Below the pieces are notes generated by a model. That model worked only from the letters and a program-made list of their open reading frames with translations, did no database searches and was not told the DNA's origin. From Rhynchopus sp. YZ270_cl-10 (taxonomy: Eukaryota), in assembly GCA_964035575.1 (NCBI GenBank), contig OZ037836.1, positions 1,984,001-2,048,000 of the forward strand: a stretch of DNA of 64,000 nt, in the 5' to 3' direction. Every line of letters starts with the position of its first letter. The stretch's first letter is position 1. The position numbers and the translations under genes are program-made. This document shows, piece after piece, positions 7,402 to 54,338 of this stretch.

Positions 7402-8640
7402 GTACAGCCACCCACGGTCGGGTGGGCGAGTCAGGGGGTGCAGGCGGCCGCAGTCGGGTGGAGGCGGCGGCGCCGGCTTCGTCTTGTGCGCCTTGTGAGG
7501 CGTCTTAGCCGCACCAGTGGAGCCAAGCTTCCTGCTGGTGGGGGGGCCCCGTGAGGGGGGTCGTTGCGGTGGCATCTGGGCAGGTGCCGGGTGTCTCCTT
7601 CGCTGGCGGTGGTGCCGCCGTCACCTCCGTCGTCTGCCTCTCCTCCTCCACGACGGGGGGTTCCTCTTCTTCTGCTATGCGCAGCGTGGCCTTCCGTGCC
7701 TCCTCCAACAGGCGTCCCAAAGCCTGTGCACGGTGCAGCTCCTCCTCTCGGCGTCCAACAGACGGGCCTCCACCATGGCGAGCAGCTTTTCATGTTTTCT
7801 TTGCAAAAACAAAGACATATCCACGTGTAGTACAGGAGAGGGCAAAGCCCTCTCCCCTCCTGTAGGGGACTCCACTGGCCGAGACCAATGAAGTGCAATT
7901 TTTTTTTTTGGGGGGGCAATTTCACGGGGGAGAGTCGGTAGAACAGTTTTTAGGTTTTGTTACCTGGTATCTTTTTCGTTCCGGGTTTTGTTTTTTAGTA
8001 AACACGTAGTATTTTGACACATGCTCGACCCTCGTGAAAAGTAGCGTGTTCTACGTATCCCACTCCACGCTTGTTTTCCTCCCTGTGCTCCACGACGCCT
8101 TATGTACGTCAAGTAAAGGGCATTTTCCTTGGACATCCATTTCTGGGTGTTTTGGGGTAGAAGGCTTCGCGCTAAAGTGGAGAGGAAGGTGTTTGTGACA
8201 CAGCAACTTCGTGAGTCAGTATCGGTCTGCGAATCAAATTGAAAACGGCGTGTTTGCGCGTCATATCGCAGAGGATAGAGAAACTGAACAGTCATGAAAA
8301 TAAAATACCCCCTAGCGTGTGCTCCACTAATTTGTTGATCGCATCCAATCAAAAACAAAAGACCTCTCCCCTTGCAACTGTTTGTTGTCTCTTGCACACC
8401 ACACACTCCCTACCACTTCCCTTTGGGCACATGCCTACACGACTGAGAGAGACATCCCTCGCGTCCTATCACAGCCTTGCAGCATACAGTTCTGCACACA
8501 GAGGTGTCCCCTTTGTCTTACACCTCTATCGTCTCAGTGGCAACATGTCTGCCTTCTTCTTGTCTCCTTCCCGTTAAGATAGTTGTGTTTCTTCTTGCCC
8601 CACCCAAAACACCTTGCACAAAACAGAGAGACACAAAACC

Positions 8641-37422: not shown

Positions 37423-38865
37423 CTCACTGAAGACACTGGATATTTCTGGATGGAACAATGTGACGCAGCTGGGAAATTCGTTCCTTTCCAACTGTACTGC
37501 ATTACAAACACTTGACTTATCTGGGTTGACGACTGTGCAGCGCATTGGCACAGACTTCCTGATAGATTGCATTCTACCCACAAGCAGCATCAACGTCACC
37601 GGATCGAGCAGTGTTGTGTCAGAATATGTGAACAGCCGTAGCCTCATCGAAGATTCCAACGACCTTAGCCAAGCCGCCGAAGTGGTCGAAGGAGATACGA
37701 AGTGCAAATGTGTGTGCATGTGAGGCATGTGCATCTTTCGAGAGGCTAGGCGCTCATTGCGATGTTCAGAGAACCACTTTTTGATGTTGTACTTCCAAAA
37801 GGAAGTGCACTATTGTACGTTTTTTTTTTTGGATTAGATTGTTTTTCTGGTCTTATTACATACAACGCAGAAGTACGTCACGACAGCTTTGTTTTGTTTT
37901 GTTTTGTTTTGTTTTGCGATGTGTGGACGAGCCAATGCATCTTGCACGTTTTTCCCATACCCTTCTCTCAACTCCATCCGTAGGGTAAGTTAAGGTACAA
38001 GGTACAGGATCGCAATCGATGCACGGGGAGGGAACTGGGTCTCAGTGGTGTGCCATGTGTGAATAAAATAATAAAACCTACATTCTTGAACTATTCTCCT
38101 GACTGATTTTCGTTGGACGCATCCCTTTCTGCAATTCAATTCAAGCACCAACGTGTGTGCATGTCAGGCACAGTGTGTTCCCTCAAGATAGTGCTTGCCT
38201 TTTACTTTTATTCGGACATCTCAAACTAATCTTTGTTTTTTGTCATTTTGATTTCTCTTGTTCTCTTCTGCGCACGAACAACGTATTTTTGCCCTTTTGC
38301 TGCCCCCTTTTTTGTACCACAGTGGACAGGCTCAGTACCCCCTGCACAACTATGCTTGTGCACGAGAGAGACCTCATGGAGCTTTCAAGGTTTCGTTCTT
38401 TCGTTCAATTGCCCCTTCATTTGTGTGTGTGAATATTTTTGTGTTGTGAGAGAAATGTGCAGGGTTGGACCCCTGTAGTCATGATAAAAGCGATGCCGCC
38501 ATTGAGCGACTCATAGACGCATGAGTGATAGACGTTGTCGCTGTGGTATCCCGCCTCGCAGAGGAAGGTGTTTTTTGACACAGCAACTTCGTGAGTCAGT
38601 ATCGGTCTGCGAATCAAATTGAAAACGGCGTGTTTGCGCGTCATATCGCAGAGGATAGAGAAACTGAAAAGTCATGAAAATAACAAAAGTATGGTGCCAA
38701 GTTCACAAGGAACACATAGTGGAGCACATCCTCGGGTGTCCACACTAATACAACGAAGCTTTCAAAACAAAACAAAAGACCTCTCCCCTTGTAACTGTTT
38801 GTTGTCTCTTGCGTACTCTTGCCCCCAATTGAAAACACCTGCACAAAACAGAGAGACACAAAACC

Positions 38866-39795
38866 ATGGAAATATGTGTGAAGAGCTTTGACGGAGAGAA
38901 GTACACAGTCGAGGTGGGTGCGGATGATACAACTGCGGACATACGGCGGAAGGTGGCGTCTGCAGCAGAGTTGCGCGATGACGGCTTTGACATGAGCTTC
39001 GGTGGGAAGCTGCTGGCCGAAGGAGACGACACGACGCAGCTGAGTGCTGGGGACACAGTTGTGCTGACGAAGACGAAGTCGCAGAAGGACGACGCCATTG
39101 CAGCTCTTTGTGACTTGGGTGAGACAAGGCTGACGTCAGAGAGGTTCAACGGTCTGAGAGATCCCAAGCTGGTTCATTTGTTTCTGCAGGCGGAGGTTGT
39201 TACTGAGATCCCCAATCACGTCTTGAGAGATGAGACATTCGAAGAACTTGATCTCAGTGGTGTGCCAGGTGTGACTGACGTAGGCCACTCCTTCCTCGAA
39301 AGCTGCAGGTCATTGCACACTGCTGACTTATCTGGGTGGAGCAATGTCACATGTACTTCATCACACTTTCTCTCCAAATGCACCTCACTGACCACACTGG
39401 ATCTATCTGGGTGGAACAATGTGACGTACATTGGGATGTACTTCCTCTCCACCTGCACTGCATTGCGAACCCTTGACTTGTCTGGGTGGAACAATGTGAG
39501 GCTGGTTGATGACTACTTCCTCTCATACTGCACCTCGTTGACCACACTGGATATTTCTGGGTGGAACAATGTGACGCGTATCTGTAGCTTGTTTCTCTTC
39601 AACTGCACTGCATTGCGAAGCCTTGACATGTCTGGGTGGACGAGTGTGCAGCACATAGGTACAGACTTCCTAACATGCAACATACCCACAAGCAGCATCA
39701 ACATCACCGGATCGAGCAGTGTTGTGTCAGAATATGTGCATGACTATAGCTGTAGCCTCGTGGACGATACCAAGTGCAAATGTGTGTGCATGTGA
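38866..39795 (+). CDS. UBL-LRR-CaaX protein, 309 aa, about 6 LRRs
   Basis: Same architecture; ends CKCVCM. Confidence 0.92.
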   Translation: MEICVKSFDGEKYTVEVGADDTTADIRRKVASAAELRDDGFDMSFGGKLLAEGDDTTQLSAGDTVVLTKTKSQKDDAIAALCDLGETRLTSERFNGLRDPKLVHLFLQAEVVTEIPNHVLRDETFEELDLSGVPGVTDVGHSFLESCRSLHTADLSGWSNVTCTSSHFLSKCTSLTTLDLSGWNNVTYIGMYFLSTCTALRTLDLSGWNNVRLVDDYFLSYCTSLTTLDISGWNNVTRICSLFLFNCTALRSLDMSGWTSVQHIGTDFLTCNIPTSSINITGSSSVVSEYVHDYSCSLVDDTKCKCVCM

Positions 39796-40883: not shown

Positions 40884-42066
40884 AATATTGTTATGAAACT
40901 GGAGATGTTTAGTTGTGCACAGTTGAGGTGATCCAGCGCACACTGTTCCACACGTTTCACACCGTGAAGACGTGTGAAAACATGTGAAAGAAACCATGTG
41001 AAAACACCAAGTTTTTGTTCTGGAGGAATCTACTCAGAGTGCGCGAAGCAGTTTTTCTTTCACTTTCGTACACACTTTTTCACACCGTGAAACCATGTGA
41101 AAATGTGTGAAACCATGTGAAACCAAGTGAAAATGTGTGAAAAGGCGTGAGACTGGATCACCTCAACAGTTCTTTGTACCCTGGCGTGCGTACACTGATG
41201 CAACCAAGCATGTTGTCGTTTTGTACTACGTTAAGACAATAGTGCTTTATTCGGGCATCTCAACTTATTATCTTTGTTTTTTTATAATTTTGATTTCTCT
41301 TGTTCTCTTCTGCGCACGAACAACGTATTTTTGCCCTTTTGCTGCTCGTGCACAACTATGTTTGTGCACGAGAGAGACCTCATGGAGCTTTCAAGGTTTC
41401 GTTCTTTCGTTCAATTGCCCCTTCATTTGTGTGTGGGAATATTTTTGTGTTGCAAGATTAATGTGCAGGGTTGTACCCCTGTAGTCATGATAAAAGCGAT
41501 GACGCCATTGAGCGACTCATAGGCGCATGAGTGATAGACGTTGTCGCTGTGGTATCCCGCCTCGCAGAGGAAGGTGTTTTTTGACACAGCAACTTCGTGA
41601 GTCAGTATCGGTCTGCGAATCAAATTGAAAACGGCGTGTTTGCGCGTCATATCGCAGAGGATAGAGAAACTGAAAAGTCTTGCAAATAACAAAAGTACGG
41701 TGCCAAGTTCACAAGGAACACATAGTGGAGCACATCCTCGGGTGTCCACACGAGTGCAACGAAGCTTCAAAAACAAAACAAAAGACCTCTCCCCTTGTAA
41801 CTGTTTGTTGTCTCTTGCACACCATACACACACTCCCTACCACTTCCCTTCGGACACTTGCCTACACGACTGAGAGAGACATCCCTCCCGTCCCATCACA
41901 GCCTTGCAGCATACAGTTCTGCACACAGAGGTGTCCCCTTTGTCTTACACCTCTATCGTCTCAGTGGCAACATGTCTGCCTTCTTCTTGTCTCCTTCCCG
42001 TTCTGCGAGTTGTGTTTCTTCTTGCCCCACCCAAAACACCTGCACAAAACAGAGAGACACAAAAGC

Positions 42067-43041
42067 ATGGAAATATGTGTGAAGAGCTTTGACGGAGAGA
42101 AGTACACAGTCGAGGTGGGTGTGGATGATACAACTGCGGACATACGGCGGAAGGTGGCGTCTGCAGCAGAGTTGTGCGAAGACGGCTTTGACATGAGCTT
42201 CGGTGGGAAGCTGCTGGCCGAAGGAGACGACACGACGCAGCTGAGTGCTGGGGACACAGTTGTGCTGACGAAGACGAAGTCGCAGAAGGACGACGCCATT
42301 GCAGCTCTTCGTGACTTGGATGAGACAAGGCTGACGTCAGAGAGGTTCAACGGTCTGAGAGATCCCAAGCTGGTTCATTTGTTTCTGCAGGCGGAGGTTG
42401 TTACTGAGATCCCCTATAGCTTCTTGAGAGATGAGACATTCGAAGAACTTGATCTCAGTGGTGTGCCAGGTGTGACTGCAATAGGCCACTCCTTCGTCTT
42501 CAACTGCACTGCGTTGCGCACTGTTGATTTATCTGGGTGGAGCAATGTGGCACATATCGGGCCCTACTTTTTCTCTGACATGCGCGCATTGCAAACACTT
42601 GACTTGTCTGGGTGGAGCAATGTGACGCGTATTGATGTGCACTTCGTCTACAAATGCACGTCACTGACCACACTTGATATTTCTGGGTGGAAGAACCTAA
42701 AGCATATTGGGAGCTCTTTTCTCTGCGACTGCACTGCATTGCGAACCCTTGACTTGTCTGGGTGGAAGAATGTGAGGCTGGTTGATGAGTACTTTCTCTC
42801 CAACTGCACCTCATTGACCACACTGGATATTTCTGGGTGGAACAATGTGACGCAAATAGGATACTATTTCCTCTACAACTGCTGCAGATTGCGAACCCTT
42901 GACATGTCTGGGTGGACGAGTATGCAGCACATAGAATCATACTTCCTGATAGATTGCAATCTACCCACAAGCAGCATCAACGTCACCGGATCGAGCAGTG
43001 TTGTGTCAGAATGTGTGCATGGCATAGCCCTAACCTCGTAG
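42067..43041 (+). CDS. UBL-LRR protein, 324 aa, about 7 LRRs; 1-bp deletion puts the CaaX out of frame
   Basis: Stops at HGIALTS*; the KCVCM codons survive out of frame at 43056-43073. Confidence 0.8.
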   Translation: MEICVKSFDGEKYTVEVGVDDTTADIRRKVASAAELCEDGFDMSFGGKLLAEGDDTTQLSAGDTVVLTKTKSQKDDAIAALRDLDETRLTSERFNGLRDPKLVHLFLQAEVVTEIPYSFLRDETFEELDLSGVPGVTAIGHSFVFNCTALRTVDLSGWSNVAHIGPYFFSDMRALQTLDLSGWSNVTRIDVHFVYKCTSLTTLDISGWKNLKHIGSSFLCDCTALRTLDLSGWKNVRLVDEYFLSNCTSLTTLDISGWNNVTQIGYYFLYNCCRLRTLDMSGWTSMQHIESYFLIDCNLPTSSINVTGSSSVVSECVHGIALTS

Positions 43042-43815
43042 ACGACACCAAGCACAAATGTGTGTGCATGTGAGGCATGTGCATCTTTCGAGAGGCTTGG
43101 CGCTCATTGAGAATGAATTATGCATTGCACGTTGCACTTTGCCCCTACCAAAAATATGGAACAGGAAACGTTTTTTTATGCACAGTTCTTTGCATCCTCG
43201 CGTGCGTACACTGATACAACCAAGCATGTTGTTGTTTTATACTAAGTTAAGACAAATGCTTTGTGGGAAATGATTTGAATGTCTTTTTGTTTTTCTGGAG
43301 ATGACACTTGTGACATATCTTCGGAAATCTTTTAGTATAAATGAAGACGATTCTCGTGCTCCTCACTTCACCCCCACACTATATCAATGCAACATGTTAG
43401 ACCGTTTGGTCTGGGAGGGTTTGGGGTTTCTTCATTCTCTCAGTTCAATCTTGAGTCATTAAGAGAGGTTTGCTATATTTGTCATACCGACCCTCCCCCG
43501 TGAAATTGTCTCCCCCAAAAAAAAACCGGTATTTTGCCCCTACGGACAATTTCAAGGCAGGGGGGGACAATTTCAAGGGAGTCGCGGGGACAACCTTTGC
43601 TCTCCCTTCTTCACACCAAAATGCGGCCACCCCTCTACAGTACGAGAAATTGTCCCCCCTTTTTGCCGTACGTGATATTGTCCCCCCCTCACTTTTTCTC
43701 CCAGGGGGGACAATTTCAAGGGGGAGGGTCGGACAGAAATAATGTTATTTGTCATTGTTTCGCCATTTTTTACTACAACACCTACAACACTACCCGAAGT
43801 ACAGACACCGCAGGC

Positions 43816-46224
43816 ATGCCTAACCAACATGACGCAAATGCCACACCTGTGCCCACCACGCTGCAGACCCTGCGTGAACTTGCCAACGCAGAAACACCTG
43901 CCGCGCACACCCAAGCGCTGAGACATCTGCTTGCCACACCACACAACGCAGGTTCGTGGTGCACTGCTGCAGGAGCGGCTGCCGACGACGCCGCAACGTC
44001 ACGACTCCTGCAATACGTACAGCACAGCACACTGAAGGCCTTCGTCGACGGCGCGTACATACTCCCAGACAACAGCAAGGTCAGCCTCCCAACGGAGCTG
44101 GCAGACGCCGCAGCACACGGCTCCGTCCTGCACACAGCTGCACCTACCCTTCTCAGCTTCGTCAAAGCACGGCAGGCAACAGTCGTGTCGCTCTCTGACC
44201 TCGACGTGCTGAGCTGTGCACAGCAACAGACACCTGCACAACGCGTGAAGATGGCGGTGCTGAACAGCTGCAACGCAACGACACCAGGGGGTGGATACAA
44301 GAAGGGGGCGCCAGGCAATGAAGAGGACCTGCACAGACGCAGCAACGTGTTCTCTTGCCTGGGGGACCCGCAGAAACGCTACTCTGCGCACAAGGCGTGC
44401 ACTTACCCTCTGAATACACCCTGCGCGCTATTCTCGCCACGTGTTGTGGTGGTGCGTGGTGGGGCACAGGAGGGGCACCCTTTCCTGCTCACGCCGTACA
44501 CAGTGAACGTCGTGTCGGCACCACTGCAGGCTACAGACGCGCGGCTTTCAAAGCGCGCCTCAGAAGTATGTGGTGGAAGTGAACACAAAAATCAATCTTA
44601 TTTTTCCTCTCCCCTTTTGTCAGAGTATTCTTCAGTTTCTCTAATAATGTTTTGACCTCGCAAAAGTGAATTGCACTCACGTGAGGAAGATATTCCTGAA
44701 GGTGCGTTTTCGCAGTGCGTCTGTTCAGACCACCTGTTGTTAACCACAAGAACACCACTTTTCAGTCCATTGTTTGCCTCAAAAGCGAACGCAACGATTG
44801 CATGTACCAGCAGTTTTTTCAGGTATTACAGTGAGCGGGCGCGCAAATTATTACGCATCCACTTGCCGTTTGGATAAAGACGAAATGGGTTTGGGGGGAA
44901 GAGTTTAATTCTTGAACGCATCCCCACACTCAGTCACGCGAACCCATTTCTTCTTCTTACGGACAATAGGAGAACTCTTTAGTACACCCAAGAATAGACT
45001 TCCCCACGTGCAAGGTTTCTGATTCGCAACACAAAATACCCTTCACAGAATATGCTTGCAAGCCAGCTGAGGGTTGCGCTGCTAACGTGCGCGAAGTACG
45101 GGTGCAATTGGTTGGTCATCCCCATGATGCGTGGGTTAGCCAGGTGTGTTTCAAAAGCAACAAAAAAAGTAAAAAGTTGATACAAGAAAACAAAACGTTG
45201 CTCTATGTTGATGAAGCGCAATGTACCGACCCTCCTCCCTCCTCTTTGTCCCCCTGGGAGACAAAGAGGAGGGAGGACAATATCTCGTACGTAACAATGT
45301 TAGCAAAACCCTCCACTTCACACGAGACACCCATGGCTCCGAAATTGTCCCCCCCTCTGACCCCCTTGAAATTGTCCCCGCACACACATACACACATACA
45401 GCGCATTCAAGGACGCACTACGGGACAGCGATATATGCCACCTTTTTCAGCGGGTCACCTTCTGCACGCCTGCAGCAGCCGAACCAACGTTTCTCGGCCA
45501 CGTAACAACCCAGACACCACACGACCCGCTCCGACAGGAGTACCTTACTGTGTTCCAACTGCTTCAACCGGACCACACCGCCACCGCCCCCCTCTTCACA
45601 TCCAAGCCCTCCTTGAAACGAAAGCTTCCCGAATCTTTTGATAACCCGCCTTTTGTTGCCCCACGAGAGAGGGCAGACGTGGAGCCGAAGAGAGAGCCTC
45701 AAAGGGAAGGTGGTGGCCTGCATGCCGGATTGTCGCCCTCTGAAGGAAGCAGGGTGAACCTCCGCCGAAGGCTCTGCGAATTGCTCGACAGCGCGCAAGG
45801 TGGTGCGGCGGAACGCTGTGCTGTAGGGGTCGAGGATGCCTTGTATTGTCTGTTTCATGGTGAGGTGAGGGGTGGGGCGTACAAGGCACAGCTGCGTCTA
45901 GTGGTGGCAGGGCTGAAGGATCCAAAGAATGTGGCGTTGAGGGAGGGGCTGTTGAGTGGGAGGACCCCGCCGGCGGCGCTCGCGACGATGCAGGCAGCGG
46001 AGTTCCGCAACCCGGAGCAGTGCGCAGCTGAGGAGGTCATCCGAGCTGAGATGACCGCCGACATGGCTGCCGTGGCTCGCCCCATGCAAGAAACCTCGAT
46101 GTACCGCTGTGGACGCTGCAGAAAGTCGCGGTGCTCCTTCTACGAGATGCAAACCCGCAGTGGTGACGAGCCTATGACGCAATTCATCACCTGCTTGCAC
46201 TGTAACAATAGGTGGAAGATGTAA
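43816..46224 (+). CDS. Three-exon gene (43816-44565, 45049-45143, 45402-46224; 555 aa): TIGR02452/DUF2263 macrodomain fused to TFIIS central domain and Zn ribbon
   Basis: Exon 1 AVLNSCNATTPGGGYKKGAPGNEEDLHRRSN; introns GTATGT..CACAG and GTGTGT..TACAG with matching phases (0 and 2); exon 3 ends CGRC...YEMQTRSGDEPMTQFITCLHC..RWK. Confidence 0.78.
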
Positions 46225-47078
46225 AAAAGAAAGCAAATTGTTGGGATTTTTTCTCAAATTTGTGAGGGGTAAAAGGAGGGAGGGAGGGGTGGGTTGCACG
46301 GGAAACAATTTATATGACAAACAGGTGCAGGGTGGTTCCGTGCTTATCATAGAACCCGGCACCTTTGTGTGTCTTCCAAAAACCAAAAAGCGTTGTGTGC
46401 GAAGTTTTGAAGGAAAAATAAAAACAACTACAAGAAGGGGGCTGAGGTAACGGCAGGCGACGCTTTACTGTTTGTGGTTATTGGATGGCCACTAGAGTAT
46501 TGTATGTCGAAAGGATCTAAGGGGAGGAGGGGCCCGGGAGGGGGGGTTCAGGACAAATACTTTTGTGATGGGAAATGATTCAAACGTCTGAAACGTTTTG
46601 GTTTATTCCCCTTCCCCTTATTGTGTGCTCACCTCATTTCTGTAGTTCAGGACATCAAAAAAACGTATGGCGTGGTATGCAACTAAACAAAGTACCAGCA
46701 GAATGCTTTTATTAGTTCTTTTTTTTTATCTTCAACAATCTCAGGGATTAGGGAGGGGAGGGGAGGGGAACCATTTTTTTAAATCTCAACATTTCATTTC
46801 ATGCATTTTTTTTCGCGGGGGAAACGCGCTACAATTTTGCTAACGTGAAGATGATGCACAACGTGACAAAATACAAAAAATACTTAGCCCCCCCTTTTCG
46901 GGACCCCTTTCCCCCCTTCCCCTTTTCCCACCCATCATCATCCACAGAGCCACACACACCCTCCCCCTAAACAGAGCAAGACAGGTATCTCTTGTAGCCT
47001 CAGTACATAACCCAAACCCAACTCTTCGTTTGTCCTTTTTTTTACACTCAGTTTTGTTTGTTTTTCAAGGCGGGGTAT

Positions 47079-48395
47079 ATGACCAAGCAGCCCCAGATGG
47101 GTGGCACCACAGCTGCAGCAAGCGTGAGCAGCTCTTCCTCTGCTGCTGCTTTCAGTGCGTATCCCGCAGGCGCACAATGGCTTGCGATTGTCCTTGCCTC
47201 GGCAGCCAACTTCGTGAACCAAGCCGACCGTATCGTCATGGCGATCGCCGTAGTACCTATGTCCGCTGAGCTGGGCCTCTCGACACATGACAAGGGGTGG
47301 CTTCTTGCATCGTTCAACTATGGTTATGTCTTGACGCAGGTCTGCGCTGGACCGCTCGCTAAGAAGCATGGTGCGGCCCGTACCCTGGCTGCAGCGCTCT
47401 TTGGGTGGTGTACCCTCACTGTGTTGACACCTACTGCAGCGTCGTATGGGATCACCTTCTTGACGTTGATGCGTGTCTTCATGGGTTTTTGCGAAGGGTT
47501 CTGCTGGCCAGCGTCGTACACATGGTTGACTGATACAGTTGACGCCTCGCGGAGAGGGCGTGCCTTCACGCTGCTCATTGCTGGCGGCAGTGCGGGGCAG
47601 CTTGTTGCGCTGTTGGTGTGCCCGAAGCTGGCGTGGGCAACGATGTTTGTTGCCTTTGGGATGACAGGGTATGCGTGGCTGCTTGCATACTTCCTGTGCA
47701 GCCCTTCCTCACGTCGCGCTTCCGACCCCGAGGTGCGTCTCCGCGACTCAGGCGTGGTGTACCTCCGTATGGTCCAGCACCCCGCCGTCCTTGCCATCCT
47801 CGCTGCGCACTTCACGCATGCATGGGGTCTGCACGTCTTGAACACCTGGCTGCCTACCTACCTCAACACTGTGCACGGTGTAGGAAAAGAAAGGCTATGG
47901 ATCGCAGCCTTCCCGCTGGCAGTTACGACTGTGGTCTCCCCGTTGTACGGTGTCTGGGCGGACCGTCTGGCGCACCGTGGGGTCAGCCTGCTGACGATCC
48001 GTAGGGTGCTAAGCGGAGTAGGTTTTGTTGGCCCAGCAGCATGCTTCGCTGTGCTGCCGTACGCTGAGACGGAGTTCGGCGCTGTTGCGGTGGTTTCAGG
48101 AATCTTCGTAACTGGGGGATGTCTTGGCTCGGGTGTCTTCTCCAACCACGCTGACATCTTACCCGGGCATGCTGGCATGGCCTTCGGCCTAGGCAACACC
48201 CTCGCCACACTTCCCGGTCTCGTTGTCGGGCCTCTCACGGCACACCTCATCGAGACCGAAGGTGTGCATGGGTGGACGTCAGTATTCCATGCGGCTGCCT
48301 TCTTCAATATTGTAGGCGCATTCGTGTACACAAGGTACTGTGAGGTGCTGCCCTTAGAAGGGTTTTCTGGTGCAGTGCAGAAAGGCGAGGAGTAA
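47079..48395 (+). CDS. MFS transporter, anion:cation symporter (SLC17/PHT4-like)
   Basis: NFVNQADRIVMAIA, LASFNYGY, RVFMGFCEG, TWLPTYL, GNTLATLPG motifs; many hydrophobic helices. Confidence 0.9.
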   Translation: MTKQPQMGGTTAAASVSSSSSAAAFSAYPAGAQWLAIVLASAANFVNQADRIVMAIAVVPMSAELGLSTHDKGWLLASFNYGYVLTQVCAGPLAKKHGAARTLAAALFGWCTLTVLTPTAASYGITFLTLMRVFMGFCEGFCWPASYTWLTDTVDASRRGRAFTLLIAGGSAGQLVALLVCPKLAWATMFVAFGMTGYAWLLAYFLCSPSSRRASDPEVRLRDSGVVYLRMVQHPAVLAILAAHFTHAWGLHVLNTWLPTYLNTVHGVGKERLWIAAFPLAVTTVVSPLYGVWADRLAHRGVSLLTIRRVLSGVGFVGPAACFAVLPYAETEFGAVAVVSGIFVTGGCLGSGVFSNHADILPGHAGMAFGLGNTLATLPGLVVGPLTAHLIETEGVHGWTSVFHAAAFFNIVGAFVYTRYCEVLPLEGFSGAVQKGEE

Positions 48396-49270: not shown

Positions 49271-51707
49271 AGTGATAAGAGTTAGAGGCCCGTTCAAACC
49301 TGCTGCCAAACTTGGTAGTAGGACGTCAGGTCGTATTCGCGGCACCTACCTTGTCTTTGCGTTGCACTGGCAAAAGGCAGACTGAGTGATAAGAGTTAGA
49401 GGCCCGTTCAAACCTTCTCTTTGCGTTTCTGTATCAATGAGGAATGGAATGAAGGGGACCATTATTTTATTTTGATCCCAAAAACCTGTTATGTTCAATT
49501 CATTGAATGCACGGTATTAGGCAATTAGTGTTCTGTTATGACACTCTTTGTGAATGAGGATTGCCCCCCCAGTGAACCAAGTAGGTTTGTAGTCTAGGGG
49601 CAGGGGCCGAAACTAAAGGGGCCCCCCGAATAAGTTCCCCCCCAAATAATAGGCATTTTCCCAAATAACTTCTTTTTTTTCCAGATTTTAGGTGCCGAAA
49701 AAGTTACCGAATAACTTCGCCCCCTTCCACTTCCTTTTTTATTTTTCAAAAATTTCCTCCAAACTGATAGTGTACCCAGTACTACTGTATATTTTTTTTG
49801 CGGAGCAAAAAAAAGCAGAAAAAAATGGCGCCGCAGGCGAAAAAAAATTATGGTACGGTGTTTTTTGCCCAAATAACTTCCCCCCCAAATAACTTCGATT
49901 CCAAATAACTTCTTTTATTCTTCGAGCAACCACCCCCCAAATAAAGAACTTATTCGGGGGGCCCCTTTATTTTCTTTTTGCCTTTCTTTTTCCAGTGACA
50001 TTCCTGCCTGAAATTGTAGAATTTAATTTCTATTTTTTCATCAAAATAATCCCCCCAGTGAACTGTTTGGGACCCCCCGCCTCGCCTGGACAGTTTCCTT
50101 GTGAAATAGCCACACCACCTTCACCGACAAAAAAAAACAAAAAAAAAAAACAAAGATTTTCTGCGTCCAGCAACTTATTTGCGGCAGGCTTGCCTAAGGT
50201 TATGTTTGCAAAGCTAGCCTTTTCTCTTCTGACCTCACCTTACAAATTTTCTTTTGTAATAGGACAAATACTTTGTGATGGTAAATGATTCAAGCGTGTG
50301 AGACTTTTTCGTTTCCTTGCGATGACGTGGGTGGCGTACCAACGAAACAAAGACGAAGTCGGAACCACGTTTTTATTATTATTTTTGTGTTATCAAGCAT
50401 TGACGAATAGAAATGGAAAACGACGGATGGTGCGTGCCCGCTTTAGCGTATTGGTTTTCCACTAACATCACTCACACTCATCAGTGAAAAACACAAACCT
50501 TTTGCGGGTGCGATAAACGAAAAAGTGTTTTCTTTATTTCATTTATGAATCTAACTACTGTCATATCCTGAAGTCGTTTTCTATTTTTTTTTTGTTTGAA
50601 ATTTTTGTTGTCTTAGCATAGACACGAGGAGTGTGCTCCACGAACACAATAAAAACAAAAAATGGGGCCCTGACCTCCCTTCTTGCGTGCAGGTGGATCT
50701 GTATAGAGCCTTTGTGCTTTCTCTTTGTCATGAGAGTACCGTGTTTGGATAAAATATGGATCAGAGTAATTATGGACCTTTCGGGAGGCTTTTTTTTTTT
50801 CTTATGGACCAATTTTTCTCCATATTTTTTTCCGGACACGGAAAGTGAAACTGATTCATTTTTTGTTCTTTTTTGTGTTTACTTGCCACTTGCCTCTCTT
50901 CTCTTTTCTTGTGGTTCCCTCCCTCCCTCCTATTGGAATGTGTGCAGTCGACACAATTACCAGACAGCCCCAGGGTACTGGGGTAAGCTCCTAGGCACGG
51001 TGGTGCGGCCCAGTGGGGTTCGTGACCCGTCCTTACCTGATCGTCTTCTTGAGTGCATCATGTCAGGTGTTGCCTTCGGTGCTAGGAGTTAGTGCCCACC
51101 TGGCATGATGCATGTAGATGCTACAGCGGAAGGTGCAGAATTGCAAAAGGAGGGCAGATAAGGCTGCCTATGTGTATCGATGTTGGCACGCTTCACCTCT
51201 CCCTGTTCACACTGCGGTGTGACGCTTCCACACACACACCATCTCTCTCCTGTTGGGTGGTGTGTTGTGTTGCGGAGCACGATTGGGTGAGTGAACGACG
51301 TGGCACGTTCCGGTCAAAGTAGTGTGCGTAACAAAAAAAATATAGGTATTGATTTGATGAGGATCAGATCGCTTGATTTCCACGCGAGGGTGCGTTATGT
51401 CCTGAAGCAAGAGAATCTAGGCACATCTTACAAAATGACATAAAAACTGTTGTATAAAGGAAAACTGCTGCGTGTTGTGCTTGCTTTCCCTCCACAAAAA
51501 AAAAATCAACAAAAAAAAAGTACAGATCCTGCAATAGCAGGTGATTGTCGACACAACAACAAAAAAAAATCAATGTCGTTACAAAAGAATCCCCGCAAAA
51601 TCCCTATATCATTTTCCTTACACGCACATTTCTTTCCCCACACCTTCTCCACATCAACAATATTAGTGCCACAACAAAGGGAAAAACCTCGGGAAAACAG
51701 CAAACAA

Positions 51708-54338
51708 ATGGATTTGACTATCAAGGGGTGGAACGGAGTGAAGGATACGGTGGAGCTGGGTGAGGATGACACACCTGCGGTGATGCGGCGGAAGGTGGCG
51801 TCTGCAGTGGGGTTGCCTGAAGACGGCTTTTGCATGAGTTTTGGAGGTGACGTGGTGGGCGAAGGATACGACATGACGCAGCTGAGTGCTGGTGACACAA
51901 TCGTCCTCACAAAAACACAGAAGGGGGCAATTAACGTCTGACCAACCGCCAAGTGGGGCCCCTGGACGCCGTGTTCGCATGGTACTGAGTCAGCGTGGGC
52001 GGCCGCCTCTCCAATGATGGATTCGCTCGGGACCGGAGGAGGAACAAGCCGATGTGGGAACCCTGGTTATTAATACAACATCACAGTCAATTTCGGGCAG
52101 ATCACCAGCTTATGTAGGCTACGCAAACCCCTTCGGAGGGGTTTCAAGGATCTGTTACCTGTGCGGTGACTGGGAGTGTGTTGATGCCGATGAGGGGATC
52201 CCAGGTACAAGAAGGAAGCGTTGCCGGTGTCTCTACTGGTGACGGAATATTGTTGCTGTTCCTGTGTTGTCGTTTGACCGCATGGGAACGTTGTGTTGCT
52301 TTGTTGGTGCGTACACTGTATGTGAAACAACTGTGGATCAGCAGGTACGTGCTCTTGTGTATTTAGTGTGGTGTGTTGTAGTTTTGTTCAGTTCAGTTCA
52401 GTTTTCATCTTTTTGCCGTAGTAGAATTCTTGTGTTATGTGTTTAACCTCAGGCTGTGTACACCGTAGTGAAACATCTGTGGATCTGCAGGTGCGTGCTC
52501 TGTCGTTAATTCAGTGTGGCATGTTGTAGTTTTTGGTCTGTTTTTACGTTTTTTATACGTTAGTAGAAGAAGGGATCTGCGAACATTCATTCGCAGGTGG
52601 GTACAAGTTGTCGCCGTGGCATTCAGCTACGGTGCAGAAGAGGCAGTAGGGCAGACCAACGTCTGTGCTAGAAGGAAGAGGTTAAACTTTCAGGGTGTAT
52701 GCACTCTGCAGGTACATGCTCTGTTGTTTTCCAATGTGTTTATTTTTGTTCTATTTTCACGTGCTTTGGTACGTTGGAGATGAGGGAGTTGTCGCCGTGG
52801 CGTCCAGCTACGGTGCAGAAGAGGCAGTAGGGCAGACCAACTACCAAATGTAGGGTCTGTGCTACGCGGAAAGGCTGGTACTTGAGTTTGTTCACTGTTT
52901 GTTGTAACTCCTTCCCTACCGGTACTCCCTTACTTGTAAGGAAGAAGTTACAACTTTCTCTGTACAAATCAGGGGAATTTTGTGTGGCCGTCTGCCATAT
53001 TGTGTGGACATGTTAGCTGACGGTGCTGCTGTTTCTTTTACAACAACACTGCTCTTGCTGTTGATTTTTCTTTTTCATTTTTACTTTTTATTGTTTCGAA
53101 AAACGGAGGTTAATGTTTCCGGTTCGGGCCTGGACTCCGACCCCTACTCTTGCTGACGCGAACGAACGGTCGTGAACCGTCCCCATTCTCTTACGGTGTG
53201 GGCACCGCGGTAACGGTGGCTAGGAAGAAGGGAATCACCCAGAACCACTAATCGCAGCCTGACAGGCACCGAACCTCGGGTGAGAATCCCCTCCTGTCAG
53301 CCCTGTTCGAAGTACCTATTTTGTTTGACCTTCTTGTCTTTTTGACTTTTTGACTTTTTCTTTTATGCTATCGAACAGTGCACCCCCAGTAGTGTTGGCA
53401 TGCATACCTGGGCTGGTCGGCTTGCCGATCTGTTCCAGGGACTGGGGTAAAGTGCCACTAAACGCAGCAGGTACCTGTGTTTTTTGGGGGTCTTTTGGTT
53501 GGGAAGGCCACAGAAAGAAGGCCCGGCCTGCCAGAGATCGTTAAAACGGACTACCTCACAAAAACACAGCACTTCACGCGTTGGGTGAGACGGACATCAC
53601 TGCAGAGCGGTTGGAGGAGGTGGAGGATCCTGAGGTGGCGTGTTTGCTTCTGCAGGCGGAGGTTGCGACTGTCATTCCGGATAGGTTCCTCCTAGCAGGC
53701 ACTTCGTTAACGAGACTTGATCTCAGTGCTGCGTCCATTGTGACGCACATTGGAGACTACTTTCTGTACGAGTGCACGTTCTTGACAAGCATCAACATCT
53801 CTGGGTTGAGCAATGTGAGGGTCATTGGTTGCACCTTTCTCAACGGTTGTGAAGGCTTAACCACCCTAGATTTGTCGCCACTCGGCGAGTTGACAGAAAT
53901 TGGTAGCGAATTTGTCTCCGGCTGCTCAGGTCTAACTACTCTAGAGCTTTCACCACTCAGCAAGTTGTCAAAAGTAAGCGATAACTTTCTCGCTGACTGT
54001 TCAGGTTTAACCACTATGGATCTTTCACCACTCAGCAACTTGACAGAAATTGAGTACAGATTTCTCTCCGGCTGCTCAGGTTTAACCACTCTGGATCTGA
54101 TGCCACTCAGCAACTTGACGGCAATTGGATCCATCTTTCTCTCTGACTGCTCAGGTTTAACTACTCTGGATCTTTCGCCACTCAGCAACTTGACAGAAAT
54201 CGGTAGAGGCTTTCTCGACGGCTGCGATGGCTTAACCACTCTGGATCTTTCACCACTCAGCAGGGTTACGTTTGTTGGTTCGCACTTTCTTACGAACTGC
54301 ACTTCGTTGAAGAGTATTCACCTTACCGGCTGCAGCAG
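51708..54338 (+). pseudogene. UBL-LRR subfamily B pseudogene: 1.6-kb insertion, 19-bp deletion and loss of the 3' end
   Basis: MDLTIKGWNGVKD... UBL at 51708, LRRs resume at about 53570; the end joins directly to sequence matching 57044 onward of the intact paralog. Confidence 0.85.
51925..53553. mobile_element. About 1.63-kb insertion with a long target-site duplication (16 bp or more)
   Basis: CCTCACAAAAACACAG at 51905-51920 and 53554-53569. Confidence 0.8.

Follow-up and report, generated by a model that had tools for sequence, protein, structure and literature searches.

The transcription factor TFIIS, which rescues RNA polymerase, belongs to the core machinery and is highly conserved. 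It attaches to Pol II through domain II and stimulates transcript cleavage through the Asp-Glu hairpin of its domain III; domain I (LW/TND) is dispensable for activity. In trypanosomatids, according to PMC2610381, TFIIS1 consists of domains II and III only and TFIIS2-1 adds a PWWP domain and domain I, with a redundant essential function of the two proteins in T. brucei. The microbial-type PARGs carry the signature GGGx6-8QEE and, within the diphosphate loop, a G[AV][FY] patch; this loop strains the distal ribose for catalysis (PMC7050489). For the D. radiodurans enzyme, PMC6445106 names Gln110, Gly224, Gly226, Val227 and Phe228 as pyrophosphate contacts, the diphosphate loop accounting for four of these five main-chain contacts; Glu111 contacts the distal ribose and Asp113 the adenine N6, and the E112A variant is inactive with ADP-ribose binding retained.

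In Rhynchopus sp. YZ270_cl-10 the two families are joined in a single gene, located at 43816..46224 of the window, i.e. the whole stretch of 64,000 nucleotides that was analysed and to which all coordinates refer. The gene encodes a PARG-like macrodomain followed by TFIIS domains II and III, and represents a real, conserved and apparently undescribed variant of TFIIS.

The spliced gene and its surroundings

The open frame of 555 amino acids (exons 43816-44565, 45049-45143 and 45402-46224) has all of its parts on the + strand. The coding exon 1 (43816..44565) provides the N-terminal helices and the bulk of the macrodomain. Intron 1 (44566..45048; 483 nt, GT..AG, phase 0) is followed by exon 2 (45049..45143), which supplies a helix and a strand of the macrodomain, terminates in the shortened diphosphate loop, and is collinear in translation with the Lacrimia and D. 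papillatum proteins. Intron 2 (45144..45401; 258 nt, GT..AG, phase 2) contains a partial repeat copy, and exon 3 (45402..46224, coding, with the stop codon) encodes the final helix and strand of the macrodomain, the linker, and TFIIS domains II and III. The 3' untranslated sequence comprises at minimum 46225..46280, up to the end of the contig discussed below; true RNA ends are not visible in contigs.

Six public runs, X1 to X6, cover the stretch, none of them on record as RNA. In X6, one run whose kind is not on record and whose contigs reveal neither RNA ends nor levels, a single contig of 1837 nt with no other letters spans all three exons in the blocks 43740-44565, 45049-45140 and 45399-46280. 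Its joints are 44565/45049 and 45140/45399, the latter becoming 45143/45402 when the cut is shifted by +3, so that both junctions named in the original prediction are found in this one contig, and the non-repeat bins of the introns have zero depth in the run. Runs X1-X5 contain the intron sequence, and neither joint was found in them. Among 16,187 open GT-AG models with one or two introns, each scored for its fit to four homologues, the model 43816-46224 came first (score 650; next 647; best one-intron model 465). Joints and ranking thus bear out the proposed union of two open reading frames through a 95-nt exon and two GT-AG introns, and the fusion gene is real: one spliced gene. That the frames belong to two separate genes, joined only by an artefact of the gene model, has next to no probability. 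The automatic caller did record exon 1 by itself as a 344-aa protein (P0011), and the joints come from the single run X6 of unrecorded kind, but the X6 contig is unbroken and intron-free, and two independent full-length fusion proteins derive from Trinity assemblies. In the ENA protein P0158, the similarity stops at the same residue as exon 1 of the window and is followed by Val-Cys, like the unspliced frame of the window, which suggests that the position of intron 1 is probably conserved in another genome.

The surroundings of the gene are rich in repeats. A MITE-like element of 246 nt (43487-43732) with 29-nt terminal inverted repeats, 93% complementary, lies immediately upstream of the ATG; no target-site duplication is evident at this element, partial copies occur at 45226-45379 (intron 2) and 7901-7938, and in the intron-bearing runs it is covered hundreds of times more deeply than single-copy sequence. 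Other high-copy repeats, as judged by depth, are located at 44845-44965 (intron 1) and at 46264-46491, shortly past the stop codon. An out-of-frame upstream ATG opens a frame (43742-43942) that overlaps the start, and a pyrimidine-rich stretch with several AGs precedes 43816, where a spliced-leader acceptor may lie; the X6 contig reaches further upstream. Farther upstream, a tandem family with a ubiquitin-like domain and BspA-type LRR is found at 38833-39795 and 41674-43041 (+), with Pfam ubiquitin and LRR_5 matches in 41674-43038, and a start resembling this family lies near 51444-51941. Downstream, on the same strand, an MFS transporter gene (46998-48395, +) shows no sign of a functional link.

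Domain architecture, distribution and origin

Exon 1 matches PF10021 (E 9e-25, 88.2 bits) and TIGR02452 (E 3.5e-21, 75.9 bits), above the Pfam and NCBIfam cut-offs, respectively, and exon 3 matches PF07500 (E 1.3e-13, 51.8 bits; cut-off 29.2) and PF01096 (E 1.3e-15, 57.4 bits). The Pol II-binding helical domain II is encoded by 45751..46056 and the four-Cys zinc ribbon of domain III by 46102..46221, in agreement with the match to human TFIIS, and domain III includes the acidic hairpin RSGDE at 46156-46170. The hairpin had been described as intact in the original prediction, and indeed C518, C521, C546, C549, D537 and E538 are invariant in 5/5 fusions, as are 26 of the 55 positions of the domain III region. 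The TFIIS half scored 85.5 bits against human TFIIS, with domains II and III covered, and 70.7 against yeast; exon 3 by itself reached 113.9 against TIGR01385 (cut-off 237.1), and a cluster look-up returned TFIIS clusters only. By analogy, this half likely rescues backtracked RNA polymerase II. The linker (45463..45750), whose matching stretch in D. papillatum has a low pLDDT, contains a putative basic, NLS-like patch at 45604-45627; a basic patch is present in the linker of each fusion and is a possible candidate for a nuclear signal.

The same layout of PF10021 and TFIIS domains II and III occurs in D. papillatum, Flectonema neradi, Lacrimia lanifica and the ENA protein P0004; the fusion is conserved in other diplonemids. 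The D. papillatum protein is NCBI KAJ9446536.1, labelled only 'Transcription elongation factor TFIIS', and those of F. neradi and L. lanifica (P0012) are Trinity transcript proteins. Among 7,765 candidates screened for longer relatives of exon 3, two matched, those of D. papillatum and F. neradi, both with three domains; profile searches with the macrodomain, of which the best 150 of 4,142 matches were considered, added P0004, P0012 and the exon-1-like pair P0013/P0158. The TFIIS hairpin is present in 5 of 160 retrieved proteins, two of them from the same D. papillatum cluster. Pfam assigned all three domains to 4/4 full-length homologues, and in the fusions no domains other than PF10021, PF07500 and PF01096, hence neither PWWP nor domain I of the TFIIS2-1 type; TFIIS was found in 0/27 further stand-alone PARG matches, picked mostly by length. 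The microbial-type PARG relatives P0034, P0099, P0136 and P0150 are fused to NADAR, ADP-ribosylglycohydrolase or WWE, which are domains of the ADP-ribose pathway and not TFIIS. Every named fusion is from a diplonemid, so a diplonemid source is likely for the window too. None was seen in hemistasiids, euglenids or kinetoplastids among the best 150 of 4,142 profile matches, which speaks only weakly for their absence there. The full-length alignment, used as a query, recovered D. papillatum only and missed the known Flectonema protein, so word-based searches are insensitive here.

With respect to origin, the six fusion-type macrodomains are grouped by a branch with FastTree support of 0.91 (144 of 156 rows), and the same split received an SH-aLRT value of 86 with 53 rows; branches are long, and a single origin is consistent with these trees, albeit not strongly supported. 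The named nearest relatives among the matches listed are protist (Heterolobosea BB2, Copromyxa, Cochliopodium, Ancoracysta, Pellita and Ceratiomyxa), and no donor of the macrodomain emerged from the trees, which gave a different nearest branch in each run, at low support. A metagenome scan revealed no PARG-like ORF in the retrieved flanks of 80 of 537 TFIIS loci. These 80 loci are mostly short (≈ 170 aa) and virus-like in appearance, the best of them scoring 72.5 bits, to be compared with the values for human and yeast TFIIS given above; no relative of the macrodomain turned up in a viral scan. These sequence comparisons do not favour a viral source for the TFIIS half.

The macrodomain and its altered loops

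A model of the N-terminal 312 residues of the D. papillatum protein, based on 109 sequences, gave a pLDDT of 93.5 and a pTM of 0.92. Its top structural matches were led by T. curvata PARG (E 4e-14), and comparison with D. radiodurans PARG yielded Z 20.3 and rmsd 2.8 over 198 aligned residues, the next match being at Z 14.7; the alignment consists mostly of stand-alone PARGs, so that the predicted fold leans on them. A full-length model from 3 sequences was poor (pLDDT 42) and was used for the linker only. With the orthologue modelled in this manner and exon 1 of the window matching PF10021, a microbial-PARG macro fold of the N-terminal part is confirmed as a predicted structure, and exon 2 and the start of exon 3, as proposed at the outset, complete the domain with its last helices and strands.

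Residues 31-72 align with stand-alone PARGs and belong to the PARG family, and the first two helices are largely fusion-specific, being filled in 8/103 relatives. Neither exon 1 nor exon 3 gave a Pfam match to TFIIS domain I at E<=1, and the first 75 residues had a single match among PDB sequences, at E 0.75. A hidden domain I was considered for the N-terminal helices and dropped in view of this missing Pfam match and the alignment of residues 31-72; weak helical fold matches (Z 6.4-6.8) are within background. The conservation and motif counts refer to five full-length fusion sequences, for which mean identity is 0.36 in the macrodomain, 0.35 in TFIIS domain II, 0.21 in the linker and 0.65 in the domain III region. 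Since the macrodomain equals domain II in this respect and exceeds the linker, it is, on the sequence evidence, not decaying and appears to be maintained as a folded domain. His70, Lys74 and Phe76, variable in stand-alone PARGs, are the same in every fusion, and the C-terminal extension after the last strand, typical of the stand-alone relatives, is not recognisable in the fusions.

In the catalytic-loop region (PGGG...GNEED; 44284..44328, residues 157-171), the Q of QEE is replaced and both glutamates are kept, the window protein retaining Glu169, Glu170 and Asp171. Among the 147 stand-alone relatives spanning this loop, Q is present in 141, compared to 0/5 fusions; the first Glu occurs in all 147, and the second, catalytic Glu in 146, compared to 4/5 fusions, with Ala in Lacrimia. 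As the E112A variant of the D. radiodurans enzyme still binds ADP-ribose, this Ala excludes catalysis only. Invariant positions amount to 6/15 in the catalytic loop (four of the six being Gly or Pro) versus 26/222 elsewhere in the macrodomain, and the residues matching D. radiodurans Glu111 and Asp113 are E and D/E in 6/6 fusion-type rows.

The site of the lost diphosphate-binding loop is at 45115..45138 (residues 273-280). Of 150 stand-alone relatives examined, 134 extend across this site and 121 of these have the G[AV][FY] motif, versus 0/5 fusions, and the consensus loop of 14 residues is reduced to 5 in the window protein and Lacrimia, 6 in D. papillatum, and 9 in Flectonema and P0004, the last taken from MAFFT alignments, as hmmalign left that part unaligned. 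Intron 2 follows directly after the loop; the spliced contig and the homologues establish nonetheless that the loss is real. The motifs PGGG...GNEE, PMMRG and RSGDEP of the original prediction are all present in the sequence, and its replacement of the GAxGCG-type loop stands, with the refinement that the loop of the window protein is also shortened by 9 residues. With the diphosphate loop lost, the PARG part is degenerate and likely without enzyme activity; loop loss in 5/5 fusions and the Ala of Lacrimia argue against a hydrolase. The connection of ADP-ribosylation with the rescue of arrested Pol II, as supposed in the original prediction, is a hypothesis.

Function and relation to known systems

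The explanation to which we incline, with slightly more confidence than doubt, is a working TFIIS in which the slot of domain I is filled by a non-hydrolysing, PARG-derived targeting module, whose partner would not be canonical ADP-ribose. In a diplonemid ancestor, a TFIIS without domain I would have been fused to a microbial PARG of the eukaryote type; the PARG may then have lost its diphosphate-clamping loop, yet would have remained under selection as a folded domain. On its flexible linker of ≈ 95 residues the macrodomain would take the place that domain I or PWWP occupies in other TFIIS proteins, and could position TFIIS on chromatin or the elongation complex. From the observed splicing, domain order, conservation and motif loss, together with the predicted fold, we infer this targeting role.

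Against a partner other than ADP-ribose stand the two glutamates kept in the window protein, the catalytic loop as the most constrained part of the macrodomain, and the retained equivalents of Glu111 and Asp113, which would be expected if the ADP-ribose pocket were partly still in use. The macrodomain might, with rather low probability, be a non-catalytic reader of ADP-ribose or PAR, bringing TFIIS to stalled Pol II or to ADP-ribosylated chromatin, e.g. after DNA damage. The conserved glycines of the catalytic loop, the first Glu and the adenine-contacting Asp would fit such a reader, as would the binding retained by the E-to-A mutant of D. radiodurans PARG (PMC6445106) and the PARP-annotated orthogroups that file 5 of the supplement to the D. 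papillatum genome (PMC10161547) lists among diplonemid expansions; the loop with four of the five listed main-chain pyrophosphate contacts is, however, absent in all five fusions, and the C-terminal extension is not recognisable in them either. A similarly tentative proposal sees the former PARG as a sensor of ADP-ribose or PAR with a remodelled cleft, which would deliver TFIIS to modified RNA, to stalled Pol II or to ADP-ribosylated chromatin, in a protein that could be the main TFIIS of diplonemids. It is distinctly unlikely that the macrodomain still works as an ADP-ribosyl hydrolase whose opened cleft, at the elongating polymerase, takes PAR or ADP-ribosylated RNA as substrate. In favour of this, 4/5 fusions, the window protein included, keep both glutamates, and bacterial-type PARGs are able to strip ADP-ribose off the 2'-OH of RNA (PMC11833690); against it, Lacrimia is without the catalytic Glu, and all five fusions have lost the Q of QEE and the G[AV][FY] patch required to position the distal ribose. 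Very improbable, finally, is a mere passenger or folding scaffold without function of its own, left by the chance fusion of neighbouring genes; long tree branches and lost enzyme motifs could be read in this way, but conservation equals that of TFIIS domain II over four lineages, and some residues are invariant specifically in the fusions.

A search of the openly available literature found no description of a PARG-TFIIS architecture, which domain databases may list automatically. The main text of a 2025 review on TFIIS domains (PMC12139180) has no occurrence of macro, PARG, diplonem or Euglenozoa; TFIIS does not occur in the main text of the D. papillatum genome paper, nor TFIIS, DUF2263, TIGR02452 or PARG in 7 of its supplements; and the part covered of a 2026 Discoba preprint, whose supplements could list the family, does not contain TFIIS. 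In the papers compared, TFIIS or its middle domain is described with domain I, PWWP, PHD and SPOC as extra domains. A macrodomain of enzymatic origin in the domain I slot, kept over several lineages, is a clear case of enzyme recruitment into the Pol II machinery, in a group of protists that is abundant in the sea, the diplonemids. Furthermore, the fusions constitute a natural series of microbial PARGs that have lost the diphosphate loop and, once, the catalytic Glu as well. As D. papillatum carries the fusion, what the macrodomain binds is directly testable; should it read ADP-ribose, a single protein would link ADP-ribosylation to backtrack rescue.

Compared with eukaryotic TFIIS (human TCEA1, yeast Dst1), the window protein shares domain II, the II-III linker, the four-Cys zinc ribbon and the acidic hairpin; in contrast to the full architecture (PF07500 and PF01096, TIGR01385), it has no match to domain I, and a PARG-derived domain of ≈ 300 residues is found there instead. 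The trypanosomatid TFIIS1 and PWWP-TFIIS2-1 are likewise euglenozoan TFIIS proteins with a non-standard N-terminus (PMC2610381), but the domain added in the window fusion derives from an enzyme family. Along these lines, the TFS2M proteins BYE1, PHF3, DIDO and SPOCD1 also combine a TFIIS middle domain with extra targeting domains, which, according to PMC12139180, are PHD and SPOC and not a macrodomain. With the microbial-type PARGs (DUF2263; T. curvata 3SIG, D. radiodurans 5ZDA) the fusions share the predicted fold, and the window protein has a GGG-x-EE loop, a partial version of the QEE signature; the fusions differ by a shortened diphosphate loop without the motif, by the replaced Q and, in one case, by loss of the catalytic Glu, and they add two N-terminal helices and TFIIS.
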